The notes beneath the pieces are model-generated. The model was not told the DNA's origin, made no database searches, and worked only from the letters and a program-made list of their open reading frames with translations. This document shows, one piece after another, positions 1 to 24,904 of a DNA stretch of 64,000 bases. Made by a program: the position numbers and the translations under genes. The stretch is from a virus. How positions within the stretch are numbered: position 1 is the stretch's first letter; every line of letters starts with the position of its first letter. The stretch spans positions 1 through 64,000 of IMG/VR virus record IMGVR_UViG_3300009509_000014; one strand, 5' to 3'.

Positions 1-35
1 GTCGGCCAGTTTCGATTGAGCCTAATGCTATTAGG

Positions 36-124
36 CAGAGGGAGAGGGATTCGAACCCCCGAACCCCTTGCGGGGCTTGCGGTTTTCAAGACCGCCGCGA
101 TCAGCCAGACTCCGCCATCCCCCT
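36..124 (-). tRNA. tRNA-Ser(TGA)
   Basis: Cloverleaf on minus strand: AGGGGGA/TCCCTCT acceptor, loop CTTGAAA, long variable arm, GGTTCGAATCC; no encoded CCA. Confidence 0.93.
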
Positions 125-787
125 AAATATATTCTTGAATTGATCCTCAAGATATGCGCTTGCGAGTGATAGATTGTCCTCCAATTCCCAATGCGCGAGA
201 CTTGGCTTTACTGCACTGTAAGCCTCCTGTTTTGGAGTCACTCCCAAGAAGCTCGCTACAGAGTCAACCACTTCATTTGTTTTAGAAATAAGGTCAATAT
301 ATCTTATCGACATCACATTCTCAAGGTTAACCGTATTTTCTATCATCTTTGCGAGATACCTAATAGTTATCATAAAGGCGATCTCAAATGGTATTTTGTT
401 TCTTTTTGCTAAAGATTTTGCCGAATTGAATGGGTCACGATAAATCGTAATCGTCTTCATGTCTGGAGCCGCCTTTATTAAAAGGGGGAGGCAATAACAC
501 AACCTTGGGTCTTTTATCGCCCATAAATCCTTCCAGACAAACGGGCCTAGTAAAACTTTGTACTCCGCGAGATATTTATCTGCCTGATTCATAGACGGGA
601 GTCTCCAATTGCCACCAATAACCTTGTCGTGGAAATCAACAATCTTCTTTTCTTCGTAATACCCTTCTGGATTGTGCTTGCTAGGTGGCAGAAGATTATC
701 CCCCATGTATGCACCCAATCCATGCACAACTTTCGCAAGTGCAGATGTACCCCCTCTGTGAACTCCAACAACCGCGACTCCGCTCAT
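101..787 (-). CDS. Sulfotransferase family protein (P-loop, PAPS-binding)
   Basis: GVHRGGTSAL 5'-PSB motif, NPEGYYE, WAIKDPRL, IYRDP..SAKSL; start at ATG 787 coupled to upstream stop. Confidence 0.85.
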   Translation of the reverse strand: MSGVAVVGVHRGGTSALAKVVHGLGAYMGDNLLPPSKHNPEGYYEEKKIVDFHDKVIGGNWRLPSMNQADKYLAEYKVLLGPFVWKDLWAIKDPRLCYCLPLLIKAAPDMKTITIYRDPFNSAKSLAKRNKIPFEIAFMITIRYLAKMIENTVNLENVMSIRYIDLISKTNEVVDSVASFLGVTPKQEAYSAVKPSLAHWELEDNLSLASAYLEDQFKNIFRGMAESG

Positions 788-1029
788 TTGCCAGCTCCAG
801 TCCAATTCTTTATATAGGCTATTGCCTTATCTACAACCTCTCCCTTGAAGGAGCCGTAAAAATATAGACCCACTTTTTCGCCCTCATCGTCTATAACGAT
901 TCCCCAATAAGTTCCGTTAAACTTAAAATAAATCTTCCCGTTACTGTATTTTACACTAATATAGTCTGGGAAACTAATGTTTCTAACAGCCTCTATTTTA
1001 TCAATCAATTCTTCTGTAAGGTGAATCAT
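784..1029 (-). CDS. hypothetical protein
   Basis: ORF with AAGGAG SD, fits the minus-strand gene array. Confidence 0.7.
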   Translation of the reverse strand: MIHLTEELIDKIEAVRNISFPDYISVKYSNGKIYFKFNGTYWGIVIDDEGEKVGLYFYGSFKGEVVDKAIAYIKNWTGAGK

Positions 1030-1044
1030 TGTATGTCTCCTTTA

Positions 1045-1118
1045 AGCGGGTTGCGGGATTCGAACCCGCGACACGAAGCTTGGAAGGCTACTGCTCTACC
1101 AGTCTGAGCTAAACCCGC
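1045..1118 (-). tRNA. tRNA-Gly(TCC)
   Basis: GCGGGTT/AACCCGC acceptor, loop CTTCCAA, T-loop TTCGAAT. Confidence 0.93.
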
Positions 1119-1122
1119 ACTA

Positions 1123-1195
1123 CTCGGACGGGTGGAGTTGAACCACCACACTTCGCATTAACAGTGCGATGCTCTGCCAATTGAGCTACGTCCGA
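1123..1195 (-). tRNA. tRNA-Asn(GTT)
   Basis: TCGGACG/CGTCCGA acceptor, loop CTGTTAA. Confidence 0.93.
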
Positions 1196-1416
1196 CTGAA
1201 TTCCATCTTTCCCCATGTTAAAGGCCATGCGATAAGCTTGATATTCTGTCTGTGGCCGATATGGCAAATAGCGGTAACTTCCATCGTGTAACCGTTCCGC
1301 AGTTTTGCCATTTCCGTCATTGTTATTGGTATGAACATTGTCCCATCGTCACAATGCCCACAACTTACCGCATTCACTCCAGGGCTTACAACAACACGTT
1401 CTCTCTTTTTAGGCAT
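1186..1416 (-). CDS. small Zn-ribbon protein (CxxC...CxxxH)
   Basis: GGAGG SD before ATG 1416; CGHC and CHIGH motifs. Confidence 0.6.
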   Translation of the reverse strand: MPKKRERVVVSPGVNAVSCGHCDDGTMFIPITMTEMAKLRNGYTMEVTAICHIGHRQNIKLIAWPLTWGKMEFSRT

Positions 1417-1831
1417 TCCCGCCTCCATCATACACTTTAATTGCAATCATGTTTTGCCTTGCGTCGAATGTATACAGTCCATAAAATCCGCCGTTTTTCT
1501 TGTCAACGGTCACAGTACCAACAATTATTGCCCCAAGGAGATCTAGAAGGTGCCGCTGTGTCATCCTGAACTCCTTGCGTCCATCATCAACATCTTCAAA
1601 CAAGACACTACCAGACTCACTTGCAGAAGCCCACGCATAAGGAACCAATGTTGCAGTAAATGTGAAATTTGGCACAACCTTGCAAGGCGATCCGAATACG
1701 TCTTCGTAAAATGCTTCTAGTTCAGGGACGGACATTTCTCCTGCCTTGCTAAATGGTACATTCCAAATGTGACCGTCTTCGGAAAAACCTATTAGTATAT
1801 TTGAAGCCTCATTTCTACCTATAATTTGCAT
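1409..1831 (-). CDS. hypothetical protein
   Basis: GGAGG SD before ATG 1831; the longer ORF-track start lies inside tRNA-Pro. Confidence 0.7.
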   Translation of the reverse strand: MQIIGRNEASNILIGFSEDGHIWNVPFSKAGEMSVPELEAFYEDVFGSPCKVVPNFTFTATLVPYAWASASESGSVLFEDVDDGRKEFRMTQRHLLDLLGAIIVGTVTVDKKNGGFYGLYTFDARQNMIAIKVYDGGGNA

Positions 1832-1844
1832 ATCGTCCTCCAGG

Positions 1845-1917
1845 TCGGGGGTCGTGGATTTGAACCACGGCTGCACGGTCCCAAACCGCGCGTTCTACCT
1901 GACTAGACTAACCCCCG
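1845..1917 (-). tRNA. tRNA-Pro(TGG)
   Basis: CGGGGGT/ACCCCCG acceptor, loop TTTGGGA. Confidence 0.92.
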
Positions 1918-1922
1918 ATAAA

Positions 1923-2014
1923 GATCGGCTACGTTCATCCACGGCAGGAATCGAACCTGTTCCAATTACAGGATGAGTATAATTGGTTACGCCAGTTATC
2001 CGACATAGCCGATC
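1923..2014 (-). ncRNA. tRNA-like structured RNA A (12-bp terminal stem, 9-bp stem with CTCATCC loop, T-arm)
   Basis: GATCGGCTATGT/ACGTAGCCGATC; CCAATTATA/TGTAATTGG; CAGG-TTCGATT-CCTG. Confidence 0.6.
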
Positions 2015-2016
2015 AG

Positions 2017-2097
2017 AACGGGTGATTGGGATCGAACCAATGTCGCCGTGAAACCCTTCACGAAGGGGGCGACCTATCCTCTATTTTAGCACCCGTT
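2017..2097 (-). ncRNA. tRNA-like structured RNA B (8-bp acceptor, 5-bp T stem, expanded anticodon arm)
   Basis: AACGGGTG/CACCCGTT; ATTGG-TTCGATC-CCAAT; GTCGCC/GGCGAC enclosing 20 nt. Confidence 0.6.
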
Positions 2098-2192
2098 GGA
2101 GGCCCTGGTACGAGCAGGGCCTTTGGTTGAACAATAAGCGTTATTTGTGTGATGGCGGAGACAGCGCTTCTCCTACTTATTCCTCAACCTAA

Positions 2193-2276
2193 AAGTGGGT
2201 GGTGGAATTGAACCACCGAAGAGATTGCTCTCCCTAGGTTATCCCCTAGTGCCTTTGTCCTCTAGGCTACCCCACT
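2193..2276 (-). tRNA. atypical or pseudo tRNA, GAT in a 6-nt loop, long variable arm
   Basis: AGTGGG/CCCACT acceptor with G7.A66 mismatch; CTAGG-GGATAA-CCTAG; V-arm GAGA-GCAA-TCTC; GGTTCAATTCC. Confidence 0.6.
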
Positions 2277-2332
2277 TCGGTAAGGTTATTCGCTTCTCGA
2301 AGCTGCTTGGGCTTAGAATCACCTTTACCTAA

Positions 2333-2417
2333 TAGCGGGAGGCGGATTTGAACCGCCGAAGGGATTTCTCCCGCAAGGTTATGAGCCTTGTGCCGTTAAC
2401 CACTAGGCAATCCCGCT
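2333..2417 (-). tRNA. tRNA with CAT anticodon (Met/Ile2) and a long variable arm
   Basis: AGCGGGA/TCCCGCT; CAAGG-CTCATAA-CCTTG; V-arm GGGA-GAAA-TCCC; GGTTCAAATCC. Confidence 0.85.
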
Positions 2418-2620
2418 TAATACTTGTCAGGCCACTTCAAGATAGTGTCAACTGTCCATTCAACTCCGCTACAAGTGGGTGCATGAACAGTCTTGCACAC
2501 CTTCGGCGTACATACGCCGTTTTCGTGACACCATTGTTTGCAACAGACAATTTCGTATTCACCTGCACACGCACTTATCAGAAACGCGATAAGTAACAAT
2601 ACAATAACCCACTTTTTCAT
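2417..2620 (-). CDS. small Cys-rich putative lipoprotein
   Basis: MKK + hydrophobic stretch + ISAC lipobox; GGAGGTG SD. Confidence 0.65.
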   Translation of the reverse strand: MKKWVIVLLLIAFLISACAGEYEIVCCKQWCHENGVCTPKVCKTVHAPTCSGVEWTVDTILKWPDKY

Positions 2621-2621
2621 A

Positions 2622-2984
2622 TCACACCTCCGGTTCGTCAATTGGCATCACAGAAAGATATATGTTATTTTTTGCATACGGCGAATCAGGCGATAACATC
2701 CAACGTGTCTCTGCCTCTATAACTGTGCTTTTAACATATCCAAAATGAAGGTGTGTCCACTCCTGTCCGTCAATTTTCTGCGTTGTCGTTCTAAGGTATT
2801 GGCATTTGAGGCCAGGGCCACCAGAGAACCCCCACATAAGAGTTTCTACCCATTGTCCAGGAACAAGTGTAAAGTTTACATCGTTCCACGCATTAAAAAC
2901 CTCAGCAATCTCTGGATGAAACACCTTTACCCATTCCAACAAGTTGTCTGGATAATATCCACCTGACCAATTATCGTCACTCAT
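2622..2984 (-). CDS. hypothetical protein
   Basis: AAGGAGGTG SD. Confidence 0.7.
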   Translation of the reverse strand: MSDDNWSGGYYPDNLLEWVKVFHPEIAEVFNAWNDVNFTLVPGQWVETLMWGFSGGPGLKCQYLRTTTQKIDGQEWTHLHFGYVKSTVIEAETRWMLSPDSPYAKNNIYLSVMPIDEPEV

Positions 2985-3010
2985 TGTACACCTCCTTAAT
3001 TGTGTGTGTG

Positions 3011-3083
3011 CGGAGGCTACGGGAATCGAACCCGTGGCTCCTGCTCGACAGGCAGGTATGTTGGACCACTACACCAAGCCTCC
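3011..3083 (-). tRNA. tRNA-Asp(GTC)
   Basis: GGAGGCT/AGCCTCC acceptor, loop CTGTCGA. Confidence 0.92.
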
Positions 3084-3091
3084 ATTACTAT

Positions 3092-3451
3092 TTACCAATT
3101 AACACAGCTAAGAACTGGATATTGATTGCACCTGATAAATACACACTCCACAATACGCAGGCCAGATTTGTAACGTGTCCTCCTTGCACTACAATCAAGT
3201 GTTGGATTGCTTATACTCTCCCATGTGACATTTTCTGTGGCTTCTCTTGCCGCTGCCCTATACAGCTTTGCCATTTCAGCGTCAGTGTTATATCCTGAGT
3301 AATCGTATTCGACTATCTCTCCAACTGGCATTGGTGTTTGTTCAACCACTGTCTCTTGTGGCGTCCCACAACCAGAAAGCACGATGATTATAAGGATGGT
3401 TATAACAAACCACATTAGGAACCCAAATCCTTTTATTTCAAAGTCTCTCAT
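3092..3451 (-). CDS. putative lipoprotein
   Basis: Hydrophobic signal + LSGC lipobox; Cys-rich C-terminus; AGGAGG SD. Confidence 0.7.
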   Translation of the reverse strand: MRDFEIKGFGFLMWFVITILIIIVLSGCGTPQETVVEQTPMPVGEIVEYDYSGYNTDAEMAKLYRAAAREATENVTWESISNPTLDCSARRTRYKSGLRIVECVFIRCNQYPVLSCVNW

Positions 3452-3463
3452 GTTAGCCTCCTG

Positions 3464-3733
3464 TTACTTACAACTACTTGTTGAATACTGCCCACAGTCT
3501 ACAAGGAAACAGTTCGCGTAACTGTCTCCGCATTTAAGTGTGTATGTGGTACAACCTGGCAGTTGAAGATAGCTATTTGTTGCTTGCCATGCACAGTCTT
3601 CTGTTATCCGTGACGTGTTGTTGTACTCTTCCGGTAGCGGTCCGCAGCCATTCAATAGAAAAACAAACACGACTGACACCACGATAATTATAATTGTGAT
3701 TGGTATGTATCTAGTCACTTTCTTTATTGTCAT
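3464..3733 (-). CDS. putative lipoprotein (paralog of 3092..3451)
   Basis: LNGC lipobox; shared C...C.QY...SC ending; GGAGGAGG SD. Confidence 0.7.
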   Translation of the reverse strand: MTIKKVTRYIPITIIIIVVSVVFVFLLNGCGPLPEEYNNTSRITEDCAWQATNSYLQLPGCTTYTLKCGDSYANCFLVDCGQYSTSSCK

Positions 3734-4001
3734 TGTCACCCTCCTCCAAAGGCACTTCCCACGGCAGGACGACTTCCTCCTCCCAAGGCAATTGCCTTTC
3801 AAAAAATGCTTCAAATAGCTCAAGTGCTATATGGTATACTACCAAATCGCCAACCATCCTACATTCAGAATGGTGCATATGTTCAGGGCAATCATCTAAC
3901 TTGGCAAACTCTACAGCTTCGTCTAAGATTTGATTGTACAACTCAGCTATATCCTGCCCTCTTGCGTCTATGGCCCTGTGTACAGCTTCTCTTATGTCCA
4001 T
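3711..4001 (-). CDS. hypothetical protein (paralog of 4207..4443)
   Basis: Shared LY..I, EC...GDL...H, E.F and Q..W.E pattern. Confidence 0.7.
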   Translation of the reverse strand: MDIREAVHRAIDARGQDIAELYNQILDEAVEFAKLDDCPEHMHHSECRMVGDLVVYHIALELFEAFFERQLPWEEEVVLPWEVPLEEGDNDNKESD

Positions 4002-4009
4002 ATAACCCC

Positions 4010-4204
4010 CTATAGGAAAATTATCCAAATCCAAAACGGAAGTGTCGTTATAAGCAGCACAATTATTGCCACAGCTAGCAACATTAAGACAACAATGCTT
4101 CCAACAGTGTAAATCACAAACAAGAATATGTTTATGATAAAACCTATAATACCTCCGTTTTGGACAAATGGATAACTACCCCACCTGCCCCAAAACCAAA
4201 TCAT
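4010..4204 (-). CDS. small membrane protein
   Basis: Almost entirely hydrophobic 64-aa ORF filling the gap in the array. Confidence 0.55.
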   Translation of the reverse strand: MIWFWGRWGSYPFVQNGGIIGFIINIFLFVIYTVGSIVVLMLLAVAIIVLLITTLPFWIWIIFL

Positions 4205-4206
4205 CT

Positions 4207-4443
4207 TTATTCCTTCCAGTCAAACTGCCAGTTAAACCAGTCCAAGAAGACCTCCATCATAAAGTGATGGATAATAAGGTCTCCGATTTGCATACACTCT
4301 TGAGACGAACGCGACTCTATGCACGGATTGTCCTCTTCTCCAAGCTTTTCAATCACGTATTGCATTATCTCTCCATACAGAGCTTCAACGGCTGGCCCAT
4401 ATGCGCTGACTGCTTCGATTACGGGTGTCCTCAAGTCTTTCAT
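4207..4443 (-). CDS. hypothetical protein
   Basis: AAGGAGG SD; paralog of 3711..4001. Confidence 0.7.
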   Translation of the reverse strand: MKDLRTPVIEAVSAYGPAVEALYGEIMQYVIEKLGEEDNPCIESRSSQECMQIGDLIIHHFMMEVFLDWFNWQFDWKE

Positions 4444-4456
4444 GTTCGCCTCCTTG

Positions 4457-4529
4457 TCCGCGCAGCAGGAATTGAACCTGCGACTCGCGGATTAAAAGTC
4501 CGCTACTCTTCCAACTGAGTTATGCGCGG
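4457..4529 (-). tRNA. tRNA-Lys(TTT)
   Basis: CCGCGCA/TGCGCGG acceptor, loop CTTTTAA. Confidence 0.93.
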
Positions 4530-4826
4530 CTGTTCTTGATCTTCCGCCTCTTTTGCAGCTATGGCCGCTTTGGCCTTTTCTAGCTTGTCAAGTGCAAATC
4601 TAATTGTCTTTTCGACAAAGGCGTCGTCTTCTGACATAAAATAGACTCCGATTAGGAACATTACATGCGATGGTACAAAAGCTTCGTCGTCATCGCCGTC
4701 CGGAAGCGCCAGTTTTGCCGCATCTGGCGCTAAGACTAGAGCAGCCTCATTAGGAAGCAGCTCAATCGTTGTAACTTCTTGCGTGTCTAACAAAACTCCA
4801 CCCTCTAAGTCTTTTGTTGCCGACAT
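4503..4826 (-). CDS. hypothetical protein
   Basis: GGAG SD before ATG 4826. Confidence 0.65.
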   Translation of the reverse strand: MSATKDLEGGVLLDTQEVTTIELLPNEAALVLAPDAAKLALPDGDDDEAFVPSHVMFLIGVYFMSEDDAFVEKTIRFALDKLEKAKAAIAAKEAEDQEQPRITQLEE

Positions 4827-4827
4827 T

Positions 4828-5016
4828 TTACTTCTCCAAATAAACTTGGACAAGGTACTCTTCAAAGCACCCAAGCCCATAATATACGACAAAGGTTCTG
4901 CCGCCAGAAATCTTTACATGCGAATAATTAAAGTCGTGAAACCGATTGCACTTTGCACAATACAAATTCCTTACAGGAACTTGATCTTTAACTCTTACCA
5001 TCTGCCTTTTGTCCAT
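4828..5016 (-). CDS. small hypothetical protein (CxxC)
   Basis: AAGGAG SD; CAKC motif. Confidence 0.55.
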   Translation of the reverse strand: MDKRQMVRVKDQVPVRNLYCAKCNRFHDFNYSHVKISGGRTFVVYYGLGCFEEYLVQVYLEK

Positions 5017-5029
5017 AATATACTCCTTA

Positions 5030-5103
5030 TGGGTGCGGGAGGATTCGAACCTCCACTATGTCGGACTTGACGCGACTGCCTCTGCCGATTGCGCTACGCA
5101 CCC
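5030..5103 (-). tRNA. tRNA-Leu(CAA), short variable region
   Basis: GGGTGCG/CGCACCC; loop GTCAAGT with C31.C39 mismatch; 5-nt variable region. Confidence 0.8.
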
Positions 5104-5597
5104 TTTTTGTGAAGCTCTTTATTCCAATCTGCCAAAGCATCAAGTACCCCTTTCCTGACCTCTACCATAATTGCCGTAGCGGCGTCTCCGGTACAACCGT
5201 TGAACTTTTCCATAAAATTGTCAGCAAACTCTATTTTCGTAGTAACGGTTGTATACGGACCATCTGGATTCGGCTCTATCGTTACCTTGATCTTCGACTG
5301 CAATTTCATTTTGCCTGCCGCCTTGTCATTATTTACACTGTATACATGAAATGGACTATTATCTGGAGTCCAGCCAAACGACGACGACGACGACGAAGAT
5401 GCTTCGTGTGAATATGTCCAAGACTCGGCTCCAACACCAGTAGTCCAATATTTGATTGGAGGAACCTTTATCTCATAAAACACTGGCGCTTCATGGTTTT
5501 GCTTATTAACATACTCTTCCATAGTCTTTTTGGCCGTCTCAAGTGCCTCATCAAAGGCTGCAGAACTTCCAGAGATTTTCATATTCATTTTCACCAT
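5094..5597 (-). CDS. hypothetical protein
   Basis: AAGGA SD before ATG 5597; the ORF-track start lies inside tRNA-Leu. Confidence 0.65.
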   Translation of the reverse strand: MVKMNMKISGSSAAFDEALETAKKTMEEYVNKQNHEAPVFYEIKVPPIKYWTTGVGAESWTYSHEASSSSSSSFGWTPDNSPFHVYSVNNDKAAGKMKLQSKIKVTIEPNPDGPYTTVTTKIEFADNFMEKFNGCTGDAATAIMVEVRKGVLDALADWNKELHKKGA

Positions 5598-5630
5598 AGC
5601 ATATTCCTTGATGCGTGATTGCCAAACAGG

Positions 5631-5705
5631 TAGGAGCAGGAGGATTCGAACCTCCACTGTTCAGGGTCTAAACCTGTTGCCTCTGCCAAGTTGGGCTACA
5701 CTCCC
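5631..5705 (-). tRNA. tRNA-Leu(TAG), short variable region
   Basis: GGGAGTG/TGCTCCT acceptor; loop TTTAGAC; Leu-type D arm. Confidence 0.87.
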
Positions 5706-5708
5706 GTA

Positions 5709-6008
5709 CTATACAATTCTCCATCTATATTCCCCCGCCTCCCTTTTGACTTGGTACAGCGGGAAACATTCTAGGGTTGAATAAATATAAACCCACCCTT
5801 CGTAATGGTTGCCTTTTCTGATGTCAACATAGGTCCAAAAGGTTCCATCGGATACACGCTCCAAAACCACGTCTCTTGTTTCAAAGCCGCCTTGTCTTGA
5901 TACCCAAGGGGTAGATTCGACAAACCTGAATTCGTATCCGGCAGTAACACCCTCATGAATGCACGTTTGGAACTGCACATCGTTTTTTACTATTATCTTA
6001 TTCATCAT
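5709..6008 (-). CDS. hypothetical protein
   Basis: AAGGAGGT SD. Confidence 0.7.
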   Translation of the reverse strand: MMNKIIVKNDVQFQTCIHEGVTAGYEFRFVESTPWVSRQGGFETRDVVLERVSDGTFWTYVDIRKGNHYEGWVYIYSTLECFPLYQVKREAGEYRWRIV

Positions 6009-6020
6009 TACCTCCTTTAG

Positions 6021-6111
6021 TGGGCGGGGCAGGAGTCGAACCTGCGATGTTTACCCTGCGGGATCGGTTTTACAGACCGACGCTACACAACCAACAGTAG
6101 ACCTCCCGCCC
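6021..6111 (-). tRNA. tRNA-Tyr(GTA)
   Basis: GGGCGGG/CCCGCCC; loop CTGTAAA; long variable region; atypical D arm. Confidence 0.88.
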
Positions 6112-6342
6112 TTAATCTTCAGCGCGGACATTCCACAATGTTAATGCCTCACTTATGCTAAGGCGTGACGGACCCTCTGCTCCACACGTACTGCAATACA
6201 CACTATACACATACGGTATGTTTTTTGTGGAACCGTACCTGTTTAGCTCGAAGTCAATCTCCCCGCAAAACGGACAGACGCGAAGCTCAATTTTCCTATG
6301 CGCGGCTGGTATGTCTACAATCTTTGTACGCTCCATAACCAT
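6112..6342 (-). CDS. Lar-family restriction alleviation-like Zn-finger protein
   Basis: CPFCG...VYCSTCGAEGP...A...WN.R pattern. Confidence 0.75.
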   Translation of the reverse strand: MVMERTKIVDIPAAHRKIELRVCPFCGEIDFELNRYGSTKNIPYVYSVYCSTCGAEGPSRLSISEALTLWNVRAED

Positions 6343-6357
6343 ACTCCTCTCATTACG

Positions 6358-6525
6358 CTCTAGGTTGGACGCTACCCCAACTCCAGGCTTGGCAGTCAGA
6401 AGAGGCCGCTACTCTCCCCCCTAGTAACACCACGCTACTTATCATGAATTTTCGCGTGATGCCGAGTGACGTTCACCTGGGCTAAGACTATATCCATGTG
6501 TCTGCGACTTTCCACATCGCTAGAG
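6358..6525 (-). ncRNA. putative multi-branched structured RNA (about 170 nt)
   Basis: CTCTAG/CTAGAG closing stem with nested helices GCGAT/GTCGC, CCAGG/CCTGG, ATCACGC/GCGTGGT, GTTGG/CCAAC; no minus-strand ORF. Confidence 0.5.
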
Positions 6526-6643
6526 ATTTTTACATTCCCGCCCGATGGGGGACAGCGGGATTGGTTCCCCGCCATCCCCCATCTTCGTGCGTTCTCCAGT
6601 TAAGCAGAGCCTAACTTAAAGTACCCCTATTCGGAAGGGGAGG

Positions 6644-6715
6644 CAGGGGTATGAGGACTCGAACCCCAATTCGCGGTGTTGGAGACCGCTGTCCTTCCAA
6701 TTGGACGATACCCCT
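6644..6715 (-). tRNA. tRNA-Trp(CCA)
   Basis: AGGGGTA/TACCCCT; loop CTCCAAC. Confidence 0.93.
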
Positions 6716-6734
6716 AATCGTCATTATCTCCTAT

Positions 6735-6763
6735 ATTATACTGGAAATAATGACCATTGTTGA
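6735..6763 (-). promoter_or_regulatory. sigma70-type promoter driving the tRNA cluster
   Basis: TCAACA-17-TATAAT with shared TTCCAG motif before -10. Confidence 0.7.
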
Positions 6764-6766
6764 GAA

Positions 6767-6925
6767 TTATTCGGACAATATCAACGCTCTGATTTTATGC
6801 AGCTTGTCAGAAGCGGTGGTGTTGTATTCCCGAATGATGTCTTCTATAAGAGCCAGCGTACCTAAGTTTACCGTTTCGGTAAAGCTGTCTATTAGACCTT
6901 GTGCCTCATATTCATCAAGTTCCAT
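6767..6925 (-). CDS. small hypothetical protein
   Basis: Short ORF overlapping the CCA-adding enzyme stop. Confidence 0.4.
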   Translation of the reverse strand: MELDEYEAQGLIDSFTETVNLGTLALIEDIIREYNTTASDKLHKIRALILSE

Positions 6926-8363
6926 TGGCCAACTTGGCACCTTCCCGTTCGGTAAAGATGTTTGTCTTTTTGATATTGATCGCTTCATTTAACAGTACTC
7001 CTGACTTGTTTTCGATCTTTCCTTCTATCACTCCGTGCAGTAATACATTTAGTATTTCGCCAACTTCCTTGCCCTCTTCAATCGCAAGGGCCTCCATTAT
7101 GTCGTGTCCGTTAACTGCCAGGTCTGTAACCCTGAATACGGATTTCGCGTCAATCTCTGCATTTACAAGATTGAGTGCATAATTTTCTATCTTGAGAAGT
7201 TCTTTGCTTTGATCCTTGCCGTTAACGCCAAGGTCCTTCTTTACATCGGCAAAGCGTGTTAGAAAGACAAATGCCATACGTCTCTTAAGCTCTTCCGTTG
7301 AGTTATTCCCGCCGAGATCAATCTTGCTCAAAAACCTACGTGCGGCTGCTGGAGAATCAACTGTATACATATGATACCTAACCGAAAGCCAGATAAGCCT
7401 ACGAATATCCTCTGGCAATCGCAGCCGACTGGTGATTATTTCCGAAATATCAGCACCAGCCTGCTCATGCTGGTAAAAGGTAGCCCCGTATTCGCGGCTT
7501 TTGTACTGCCTAACAACTGGCTTCCCAATATCATGCAGTAAAACTGCAAGTTTATTGTTGGCCTTGTAGCCCAACTCATCAGCTTTCGCCATACACCTTA
7601 GAGTGTGCATCCACACGTCTTCAAAGTCGTGGTGTACATTCTGAGTTACGCCATTTAGTGCATATACTTCTGGCAAGATTACCTCTAGAAGCCCAAGGTG
7701 CTTTAGTGTCAGTATATACTTCATTGATATAGGAGACTCAAGCCCCTTCATAAACTCCTTACCAATTGCATCCCAGGACTCCCTTGCGATAAGGATTCTA
7801 TACTTGGTAATAGCTTCGATCAGATCGGGTTCGATAGTATACATGCTGTCGAGAGACGTGGCGAATCTTACATATCTCATCATTCTAATTGGGTGAGCCT
7901 TGATTCTCTTTACCGGATCGCCGATTGCACGGATTCTTCGCTTTGCAATATCATTACGACCTTCAAATGGATCAATTATGTTTCCATCATGATCCATAGC
8001 TATTGCATTTATAGTCATATCTCTCCTTGCCAAGTCTTCTGTTAGGTCGCTTGTAAAGCTAAACTTTACAGGCTTCCCGTCAACATAATCGGCGTCAGAT
8101 TCCTGTCTCATTGTGACGACTTCTACAAAGTCACCCTTCTCTATCGAAGGAACGTTAACTGACACAGAGAATGCAGCACTTATGATCGAAGAGCCGTCAA
8201 ACAAGTCGAGAATCTCTTTAGGAGTAGCACTTGTTACAACGTCGTAATCCTTGATCGGAAGCCCAAGATACGCATCCCTAACAGCGCCTCCAACAAGATA
8301 CGCCTGATGTCCAGCGTCAATCAGCTTCTTCATTATATCCCTGTACGACAAACCTTCGCCCAT
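6915..8363 (-). CDS. cca: CCA-adding tRNA nucleotidyltransferase with HD domain
   Basis: LVGGAVRD...DYDV, EDLARRDMTINA, DPFEG, R..RFA; HD domain DVWMHT...LLHDIGK. Confidence 0.93.
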   Translation of the reverse strand: MGEGLSYRDIMKKLIDAGHQAYLVGGAVRDAYLGLPIKDYDVVTSATPKEILDLFDGSSIISAAFSVSVNVPSIEKGDFVEVVTMRQESDADYVDGKPVKFSFTSDLTEDLARRDMTINAIAMDHDGNIIDPFEGRNDIAKRRIRAIGDPVKRIKAHPIRMMRYVRFATSLDSMYTIEPDLIEAITKYRILIARESWDAIGKEFMKGLESPISMKYILTLKHLGLLEVILPEVYALNGVTQNVHHDFEDVWMHTLRCMAKADELGYKANNKLAVLLHDIGKPVVRQYKSREYGATFYQHEQAGADISEIITSRLRLPEDIRRLIWLSVRYHMYTVDSPAAARRFLSKIDLGGNNSTEELKRRMAFVFLTRFADVKKDLGVNGKDQSKELLKIENYALNLVNAEIDAKSVFRVTDLAVNGHDIMEALAIEEGKEVGEILNVLLHGVIEGKIENKSGVLLNEAINIKKTNIFTEREGAKLANGT

Positions 8364-8445
8364 AAGATTACCTCTCATTCTTTGGTATTATCATACGACA
8401 TAAATTACTGCGTCGTAACCTTTGGTAACGTTCTTACATGTCTCC

Positions 8446-14316: not shown

Positions 14317-14843
14317 GAATTACTGCGGATCACCTTGTAAAAGATTGGATGATCTTTTCCAACATACCACCTGTAAGTACTCCCCAATTTGCCATAATCC
14401 ATTATATATTCTGGATAAGACTCTGTAAGTCTTTTATAGGAAATTGTGCCTTCTGTGGTGTTGATCCTTTTACATAATTCCCACGGTACAAGGTAAGCTT
14501 CCGCACTCATACGCCCCATTATTTTTTGTCTATTCCAGTCTAATTTCATACTTGGCATGTCAAGAAATCCTATAGCTACCCATGAAGACATTGGAGCTAG
14601 ATTTTCTACAAAATCTAATGCGCGAATTTGATGATCTCTAAATACAGACATTGGCATTGTCCATCCAGAAGCCTTTTTAGCTTCTATGGCGACAAACCTG
14701 AGAATTTTCCCGCCATTTACAGTAAGCGGAATTCCAACCACGTAGTCGAATGGCTTTAGCGATCTCCCGCAGTCTGGTATTTTTATAGAGAACCCAAGTT
14801 TCCTGAAAGCTAGCTTGCGTTCAAACTTGCTCTTAACGCTCAC
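14304..14843 (-). CDS. RecU-like Holliday junction resolvase (PD-(D/E)XK)
   Basis: KPFDY...FVAIEAK...HQIRAL. Confidence 0.75.
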   Translation of the reverse strand: MSVKSKFERKLAFRKLGFSIKIPDCGRSLKPFDYVVGIPLTVNGGKILRFVAIEAKKASGWTMPMSVFRDHQIRALDFVENLAPMSSWVAIGFLDMPSMKLDWNRQKIMGRMSAEAYLVPWELCKRINTTEGTISYKRLTESYPEYIMDYGKLGSTYRWYVGKDHPIFYKVIRSNSQQS

Positions 14844-15334
14844 ACTATAATACGACCTTTCTTATCGACGGAATATACAAGAGCGCCATCCTGTCTGCCA
14901 CCGCCGCTAAAAAACACCACTATAGACGGAAATGGTGCTTGATCTTTCTCGCCAACAAATCTTAACCTTCCCTTTATTATAAGTATTGCGAAAGCATGTT
15001 TCAATATTATGTCATGAAACCATCTGGTATCTGTTCTGGCAGGAAGAAGCATACAAACAAACGATCCATGTTTCACAGATTCGTGATACCCCTTCTTTAC
15101 CCATTTAGGAGTAATGTACTTCCCATACGGAGGATTAACCCATACGGTTCCTTTCCAGTCTTGGGAAAGTGCATCGTCCTCTTTTGTGTAAAACACTTCA
15201 CACTTTGCGTTCTTTGGTGTTGCTGCCGCATCTAGTGTAAAATGGAACATTTCGTTAAATGTGTCAAAAAGGTCTTGTGGAGTTTCGTACTCATCTTTTT
15301 TGGAGGACATCATAGCCCCCTTCATGTCAACCAC
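14840..15334 (-). CDS. phage DNA N6-adenine methyltransferase
   Basis: ETPQDLF, FTLDAAA, WVNPPYG, LLPARTDTRWFH, GRLRF. Confidence 0.92.
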   Translation of the reverse strand: MVDMKGAMMSSKKDEYETPQDLFDTFNEMFHFTLDAAATPKNAKCEVFYTKEDDALSQDWKGTVWVNPPYGKYITPKWVKKGYHESVKHGSFVCMLLPARTDTRWFHDIILKHAFAILIIKGRLRFVGEKDQAPFPSIVVFFSGGGRQDGALVYSVDKKGRIIV

Positions 15335-24160: not shown

Positions 24161-24904
24161 CTAAAATAACTCTAGTTGTTTTATTCGTTCATTTACTGGT
24201 GCCAATGAGAATAACCTCTCAAGCCTGCTGTCCTTGCCTTCGGTTGTGTGTAAGTCTGTTTTTGTGCCAATCTCAAGGACTTTCTTAAAATCGTGTGGGG
24301 CTTTATATTCTGACACCACTACGTTGTGTCCAAGAGACTCCAATTCTCTAACCCTATTCCAAAATACACCAGTATCAAATGATGGCGTATTCCCGTAATC
24401 TGTTGTTCCAGCATACGGAGGATCGCAATAGATTAGCATTTTAGGTTCGGGGGGAGGTTCTGTTAAAAAATCGGCAGTAAAAAATCTTACACCAGAAAGG
24501 TATTTTACCTTCCGCAAGATACTCCTTGATCCCTCTCTCGCATAGTTTCGTGACGGATTGGCGTTTCTTGCATACCCGCCAAACCACTTACCTCCAAACG
24601 ATGTAGCAAACCCAACAAATGAAACAAGGCTTGGGGGATATTCATCAATGTTGTCTTTTATTTTATTGTAATCATCTTCTGTGATTGTCTCTGGTGGTAT
24701 CCAGCCGTTCACAGCCGCTTTCCACATTTCTATAAGATATGGGTTAATGTCGCTGGCATACTTCCTGCCACCACACCGTATCTTTACAAGAACCCATGCC
24801 GCTCCAACGAACGGCTCCCAATATGACTGTTTAGGTTTTATTATAGCATTTATATAGCTGGATATGTCTCCAGCAGTCCGATACTTCCCGCCTAAATACT
24901 TCAC
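24161..24904 (-). CDS. DNA adenine methyltransferase (D12/Dam class)
   Basis: YLGGK, EPFVG, IYCDPPY, VSEY. Confidence 0.9.
   Translation of the reverse strand: MKYLGGKYRTAGDISSYINAIIKPKQSYWEPFVGAAWVLVKIRCGGRKYASDINPYLIEMWKAAVNGWIPPETITEDDYNKIKDNIDEYPPSLVSFVGFATSFGGKWFGGYARNANPSRNYAREGSRSILRKVKYLSGVRFFTADFLTEPPPEPKMLIYCDPPYAGTTDYGNTPSFDTGVFWNRVRELESLGHNVVVSEYKAPHDFKKVLEIGTKTDLHTTEGKDSRLERLFSLAPVNERIKQLELF

Follow-up and report, generated by a model that had tools for sequence, protein, structure and literature searches.

The analysis concerned the initial 64 kb (called the window here) of an IMG/VR virus record that is 73.9 kb long and is estimated to be ~60% complete. This phage is present in marine-sediment, mangrove, sludge and soil metagenomes, and no DNA match to it was found among GenBank phages, where the closest TerL stands at ≤28% and the closest CCA enzyme at ≤32%. 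The minus strand of the window carries a tRNA array that extends from 34 to 6715, comprises 12 ARAGORN calls and is interspersed with small ORFs. At the head of the array lies a gene for a phage-encoded CCA-adding enzyme (6915–8378, minus strand; PHROG 2244, E = 9e-64), and a database protein identical to this enzyme carries the Pfam domains PF01743, PF12627, PF01966 and PF13735. A Lar-like restriction-alleviation protein is encoded inside the array (6112–6342, minus strand), and a T4-type Dam and a D12-class adenine methyltransferase are found at 14840–15334 and 24161–24904 (both minus strand).

Within this array a tRNA-like element of 92 nt occupies positions 1923–2014 of the minus strand. 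A canonical tRNA-Pro(UGG) gene (1843–1917, minus strand) begins 5 nt downstream of it, and a non-canonical tRNA-like gene, termed C (2017–2097, minus strand), ends 2 nt upstream, a spacing that supports the proposal of the preliminary description that the element belongs to the tRNA transcript. No promoter or terminator match was found near the element on the same strand, no predicted protein corresponds to a translated frame across it, and the downstream ORF 1409–1831 had no homologue anywhere that was searched. Upstream, three irregular tRNA-like genes follow one another on the minus strand (2017–2097, 2192–2277 and 2333–2417). The first of them, gene C, consists of an orphan T arm, a 7–8-bp acceptor and a 6-bp stem around a 20-nt insert that replaces the anticodon loop. 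The second is a class II tRNA-like gene with a 6-nt anticodon loop, GGAUAA, which ARAGORN reports as ‘tRNA-???’ and which scores 28 bits with the tRNA-Sec model, under the threshold; it is a paralogue of the third, a class II tRNA(CAU) whose loop CUCAUAA is normal, whose variable arm is long and of class II type, and which has A73 and a D stem of 3 bp. In both class II genes the 3′ trailer (UUAGGU...AGG; 2320–2345 and 2180–2200, minus strand) is complementary to the 5′ half of the gene's own D arm (GCCUAG.GG), so that alternative helices of 11–12 bp can be drawn. Long-arm CAU tRNAs, that is, ARAGORN tRNA-Met(cat) genes of 82–94 nt, were encountered in 32 loci (31 from IMG/VR, L216–L252, and this window), and tRNAs of this class II-arm type thus recur in uncultured phages.

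The element is numbered here so that el equals 2015 minus the window position. Its ends are joined by a closing stem of 12 bp (el 1–12 with 81–92), made of 11 Watson-Crick pairs and one G-U. The 5′ strand of this stem (2003–2014) is composed of the leader GAUC (4 nt), the acceptor 5′ strand GGCUAUG (7 nt) and the U at tRNA position 8, and the 3′ strand (1923–1934) consists of ACGUAGCC, a G in the place of the discriminator and the trailer AUC. The helix reaches 12 bp through the pairing of leader GAUC with trailer GAUC and an additional U8-A pair; the chance of a 4-bp leader/trailer extension is ~0.004–0.02, and GATC as such is not special at the two ends of the element, since the window holds 193 such sites against 244 expected. 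The D-arm equivalent (1987–2002, el 13–28) contains AACUGG, in which A14 and G18G19 are placed by the Rfam tRNA alignment, and forms 3 of the 4 pairs of a D stem GGAU/AACC. It is followed by the anticodon-arm equivalent (1962–1986), a 9-bp hairpin (el 29–37 with 45–53) that shrinks to 6–7 bp if C29 and C30 join the D stem, with a 7-nt loop CUCAUCC at 1977–1971 in which U33 is present, CAU takes positions 34–36 and C37 and C38 follow. The T arm (1944–1960) has 4 bp, CAGG/CCUG, an A.C apposition at 49–65 and a canonical loop UUCGAUU (CAGG-UUCGAUU-CCUG, 1959–1945). A 9-nt bulge, CGUGGAUGA (1935–1943), separates the T stem from the 3′ acceptor strand and is flanked by a CGU direct repeat. All these parts agree with what had been described before from the sequence (12-bp stem, AACTGG, 9-bp hairpin with CTCATCC, TTCGATT and bulge).

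The predicted fold of the 92-mer has an MFE of −33.3 kcal/mol (z = −3.8; 1 of 200 shuffles equally good), and no base pair is broken among the 25 that make up its three main helices. The element is single in the window: a covariance model built from its sequence (R1) returned one copy, the element itself, the 13-mer around the bulge occurs once more, at ~17479 with two mismatches, and there is no close paralogue of the element core among the tRNAs of the array.

What kind of RNA is encoded here? ARAGORN gives no call on the native element, even with the relaxed -ps option, and the Rfam tRNA model (RF00005) assigns it 13.9 bits against a cut-off of 29, which bears out the initial impression that it is not a canonical tRNA. 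When the 9-nt bulge (el 72–80) is removed in silico, however, ARAGORN calls a tRNA-Met(CAU) with an 8-bp acceptor, GGCUAUGU, and the Rfam alignment, despite its sub-threshold score, places U8, A14, G18G19, U33-CAU and the T loop correctly. Because of these two results the element is plainly a tRNA(CAU) derivative of the methionine type. The notion of a new ncRNA class, which had been put forward for it, has to be narrowed accordingly, as this is not an RNA unrelated to tRNA. Measured against canonical elongator tRNA-Met and tRNA-Ile2 (CAU), it shares the elbow nucleotides (G18G19, T54-Psi55-C56 in UUCGAUU, U8/A14), U33-CAU in a 7-nt loop, a 7-bp acceptor if the distal 3′ strand is used, and the location inside a tRNA array; it differs by the bulge between 65 and 66, C37 where a purine is expected, C38, A49.C65, an anticodon stem 1–2 bp over-long and a paired leader and trailer, and it falls below the thresholds of both tRNA finders. 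If the proximal strand CGUGGAU is taken as the acceptor, only a weak cloverleaf results, −2.8 kcal/mol in total.

Could such an RNA still decode? A working, if unusual, tRNA that accepts Met, or Ile once lysidine has been formed, and that tolerates the bulge by looping it out would be in keeping with the CAU anticodon behind U33, the intact elbow and the perfect 7–8-bp acceptor formed via the distal strand, and the array has neither a canonical tRNA-Met nor a tRNA-Ile(CAU). Yet the pyrimidine at 37, C38, G73 in place of A73 and the paired leader speak against it. In tRNA, the acceptor/T helix recognised by EF-Tu and by the CCA-adding enzyme runs unbroken over 12 bp, and it is this helix that the 9-nt bulge at the 65/66 junction would interrupt. 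The class II tRNA(CAU) at 2333–2417, with its normal loop, is moreover the better candidate decoder. C37/C38, the junction bulge and the paired leader/trailer together argue against decoding, and we regard a decoding role as very improbable.

The combination of a tRNA-mimicking domain with a stem joining the 5′ and 3′ ends is also seen in Y RNAs, and the element could be pictured as a Y RNA-type partner of Ro60 (Rsr), whose closing stem serves as the Ro60 handle and whose tRNA-like part serves as the effector module. The order of its arms (D arm, hairpin, T arm) is that of Deinococcus radiodurans Yrn1 and unlike that of YrlA (RF02553), in which the T arm comes first, followed by an acceptor-like hairpin and the D arm (Chen et al., 2014; PMC4201824). 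The end of the closing stem carries GUCGGA, which resembles, with one mismatch and thus inexactly, the GNCGAA of the motif GNCGAA(N0-1)G that Y RNAs have in the 5′ strand, and the stem, at just 12 bp, is much shorter than that of Y RNAs and has no bulged Ro60 helix. The YrlA covariance model reaches 11 bits (at 1879–1990) against a gathering score of 69 and gives no match at E ≤ 10 on a 541-nt stretch, and no TROVE/Ro60 gene (PF05731) was found in the 73.9-kb record of the ~60% complete phage, while control genomes were matched. The membership in YrlA or other Y RNA families for which an Rfam comparison had been suggested is therefore unsupported, and a Y RNA-type function is hardly credible.

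Two further candidates were set aside. A tRNA-Sec or allo-tRNA of the 8/5, 9/4 or a similar form, defined by 13 bp of acceptor+T helix and a long variable arm, would be compatible with an 8-bp acceptor, but the element has no variable arm, and RF01852 does not match it. An attP/attB remnant, for which a duplicated tRNA 3′ segment beside an integrase gene would be expected, was considered for the two candidate 3′ strands, which are 3 nt apart with no element between them; the record encodes a single tyrosine recombinase, close to its end (72713–73183, minus strand) and ~70 kb away.

The feature that had first drawn attention to the locus, an exact match between GGATGA in the bulge and TCATCC in the loop, is present in the sequence as claimed: GGAUGA (1940–1935) is the exact complement of the loop UCAUCC, so that six contiguous Watson-Crick pairs can form, with a duplex energy of −7.7 kcal/mol. 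Among random 9–10-mers of the same composition, six such pairs or an equal energy are found in ~0.2%, or in 1.3% if any unpaired loop is admitted as a partner. As a control, 1043 tRNAs from phages or metagenomes were examined: a match of at least 6 nt between the anticodon loop and the 10-nt 3′ trailer was seen in one gene, and between the loop and the leader in four. The complementarity is thus real and uncommon, but suggestive and not proof, since it was spotted after the fact among ~16 tRNA-like genes. A second short match exists as well, as UGAAC of the bulge region (1937–1933) is able to form 5 bp with GUUCG of the T loop.

When the loop-bulge helix is imposed, a nested fold has a computed energy of −30.8 kcal/mol, about as stable as the tRNA-like folds that use the distal strand (−28.5 to −30.2). 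The pseudoknot proposed earlier would likewise be topologically feasible, with stems of 9 bp (S1) and 6 bp (S2) and loops of 1 nt (L1), 0 nt (L2) and 21 nt (L3); an H-type pseudoknot of this kind, with the anticodon stem left intact, could stack helices of 12, 6 and 9 bp end to end. It may be supposed that this pairing is the very purpose of the RNA, which would alternate between the L-shape of a tRNA and a rod with a pseudoknot, or assemble head-to-side into dimers or chains, and in this way control its own or its neighbours' processing or the binding of a partner. The six contiguous pairs with P ~0.002, the near-equal energies and the permissible geometry are in favour of this explanation. 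On the other hand, the sole architectural analogue that was found has no more than three complementary loop/bulge bases (see below), and the observation was made post hoc, which leaves such a purpose unlikely. A still more specific version, in which the anticodon loop is captured by a ‘codon’ bulge (GG-AUG-A) at the element's own acceptor/T junction, to give a 27-bp coaxial pseudoknotted rod or dimers and chains that would act as a self-locking, switchable decoy or scaffold in infection, is a speculative picture to which we give little credence.

Relatives of the locus were sought in contigs from four sequencing runs, compared with positions 1–8400 of the window. A 2116-nt contig from run X16 (also present in X18), ~80% identical, aligns to 1897–2125 with 45 substitutions and one gap, and thus covers both the element and gene C; it is devoid of 2192–2277, as position 2125 is joined to 2329. 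The single gap, at 2082, falls in gene C and outside the element. Since there is no indel across 1923–2014 in this alignment, the element length of 92 nt, bulge included, is kept in the relative, and the bulge is not a private mutation. In another relative, no difference in the tRNA-Asp of the array was among those listed, although the flanks differ by 14%. Given ~20% divergence at the element against no listed difference in tRNA-Asp, the odd tRNA-like genes probably evolve much faster than the canonical tRNAs, a pattern that would fit covarying stems and relaxed constraint alike. The RNA contigs of run X20 do not cover 1681–2240.

A plain alternative is that the element is a decaying tRNA-Met/Ile(CAU) gene, which suffered a 9–10-bp insertion at the CGU repeat and point changes (C37, C38, A49.C65), the loop-bulge match being due to chance; such a gene would persist only through its youth or as a processing spacer. 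The failure of tRNA finders and the return of a tRNA call upon deletion of the insertion would follow directly, the CGU...CGU flanks are those of slippage insertions, the ~20% divergence in the relative contrasts with no listed difference in tRNA-Asp, no family was found elsewhere, and the additional complementarity of the bulge to the T loop indicates how easily short matches are found. Against decay, the 25 stem pairs are all preserved, the closing helix extends 4 pairs beyond a tRNA (P ~0.004–0.02), the length with the bulge is unchanged in a relative that carries ~20% substitutions, and the match to the anticodon loop spans 6 bp (P ~0.002). We consider decay the main alternative, though on balance a doubtful one.

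The searches beyond these contigs returned no homologue of the element. In IMG/VR, an exact 23-mer of T loop plus bulge gave 0 matches, as did a gapped loop/T-loop/bulge pattern and a pattern of the tRNA-Asp anticodon arm; a two-T-arm pattern matched 34 loci, all ordinary tRNAs, and a class II CAU tRNA pattern matched 37 loci with no homologue of the element among them. The 8 loci obtained from GTDB genomes are bacterial and unrelated. Covariance models R1 and R2, run over ~3 Mb of phage tRNA-array loci, gave no further members, and a descriptor scan for a T arm with a bulge and a long closing stem returned mainly canonical tRNAs with leader/trailer helices. Where relatives of the phage itself were located, their sequences bear on other regions: those found through TerL (L002–L005, 79–86% identity) do not include the tRNA array, and that found through the CCA-adding enzyme (L007, 47%) ends 476 nt past the gene. 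A metagenome search with an alignment of the CCA-adding enzyme gave relatives of ≤39% identity among the matches listed, and relatives of this enzyme at 55–62% also exist. In the literature that was searched, no description of such bulged phage tRNA-like RNAs was found.

Our preferred reading, held tentatively and with somewhat less than even confidence, is that the element is a non-decoding, structurally reinforced mimic derived from tRNA(CAU), which is kept in the phage array as a gene for a structured RNA, is matured by the tRNA machinery and occupies a reader of tRNA shape or of CAU. Its departures from tRNA are the 9-nt junction bulge, C37 with C38 and the closing helix of 12 bp. The structure looks selected and not decayed, judging from the 25 intact pairs, the z of −3.8 and the leader/trailer extension. 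The length kept in the relative (in which 2192–2277 is missing, and next to an ORF with no homologue), the tight packing between a tRNA-like gene and tRNA-Pro with no promoter or terminator match on the strand, the phage's own CCA-adding enzyme and the uncommon complementarity also favour a maintained mimic. Against it, the ~20% divergence in the relative may reflect relaxed constraint as well as covarying stems, and nothing similar was found in IMG/VR, GTDB genomes or 3 Mb of phage tRNA-array loci.

According to this proposal of a tRNA-derived mimic, the element would share a single precursor transcript with the adjacent genes. RNase P, 3′-end trimming enzymes and perhaps the phage CCA-adding enzyme would recognise it by its elbow and its acceptor-like helix, so that a stable RNA of ~85–92 nt would accumulate. 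The mature RNA is not expected to serve in elongation, given that the bulge falls at the part of the acceptor/T helix gripped by EF-Tu and that a pyrimidine stands at position 37. Its likeliest job might be to occupy a reader of CAU-type tRNAs or of the tRNA shape, candidates being an anticodon nuclease of the host, a modification enzyme and a synthetase. The 6-bp pairing of bulge and loop could, in addition, produce an H-type pseudoknot rod of ~27 bp or join two molecules.

Phage tRNA arrays are increasingly viewed as a means to counter host defences in which tRNAs are cut or starved, with many uncatalogued tRNA-shaped RNAs inside them, and the element belongs among the irregular tRNA-like genes of such arrays, a kind already known. 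If it is a maintained non-decoding mimic, it would be a compact natural case in which a single bulge, a clamp helix and two altered loop positions turn a tRNA into something else, and the loop-bulge pairing, if it proves conserved, would be a self-recognition motif new to tRNA-like RNAs; should it be just a decaying gene, it would be an ordinary by-product of the fast turnover of tRNA arrays. Phage tRNAs with altered anticodon loops that escape or counter tRNA-cleaving defences are functional decoders. The element is likewise tRNA-shaped and has an atypical anticodon loop, but it carries a disabling bulge, so it would have to be a decoy. Phage T4 reportedly produces two stable non-tRNA RNAs from within its tRNA cluster, species 1 and 2 (rnaC/rnaD), which are said to be matured by the tRNA machinery and to have no known function. 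The element is similarly embedded in a phage tRNA cluster, whereas an anticodon-type hairpin with a self-complementary bulge is not known for the T4 RNAs.

One architectural analogue was found, an orphan T-arm element at L241:5004–5089 (minus strand) in an uncultured 119-kb phage unrelated to this one. Like the element, it starts with GAUC, has a D loop GGGUAACUGG, a long hairpin, a T arm CAGGUUCAACUCCUGCCG and a closing stem of 7 bp with a 7-nt bulge ahead of its 3′ strand, and receives no ARAGORN or Rfam call. It is unlike the element in that its loop and bulge have at most three complementary bases and that it folds weakly (z = −0.8). Ordinary tRNAs also reach its score of 20 bits, so neither a family nor homology is established by this resemblance. 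It sits between two tRNA-Lys genes in a phage with 33 tRNAs, and its hairpin loop and its 5′ end each contain the palindrome UGAUCA.

Several other unusual tRNA-like loci were noted in the course of the searches. In a 239-kb phage, a 105-nt element (L048:22030–22140, plus strand) is closed by a stem of 13 bp, contains the T arm GGUUCGAUUCC twice and is not called by ARAGORN. At L215:4830–4935 and L249:6350–6460 (both plus strand), T-arm RNAs or intron-bearing tRNAs of other phage tRNA arrays are enclosed by leader/trailer clamps of 15 bp and 11 bp. Extended clamps of this kind seem to recur around tRNA-like genes. Finally, a contig of a Verrucomicrobiae MAG (L176:3240–3915, minus strand) carries a GC-rich array of 11 tRNAs; although otherwise unrelated to this phage, it contains an uncalled stretch in which the unusual Asp-type anticodon arm CCUGCCUGUCGAGCAGG is the same as that of the phage's own tRNA-Asp.
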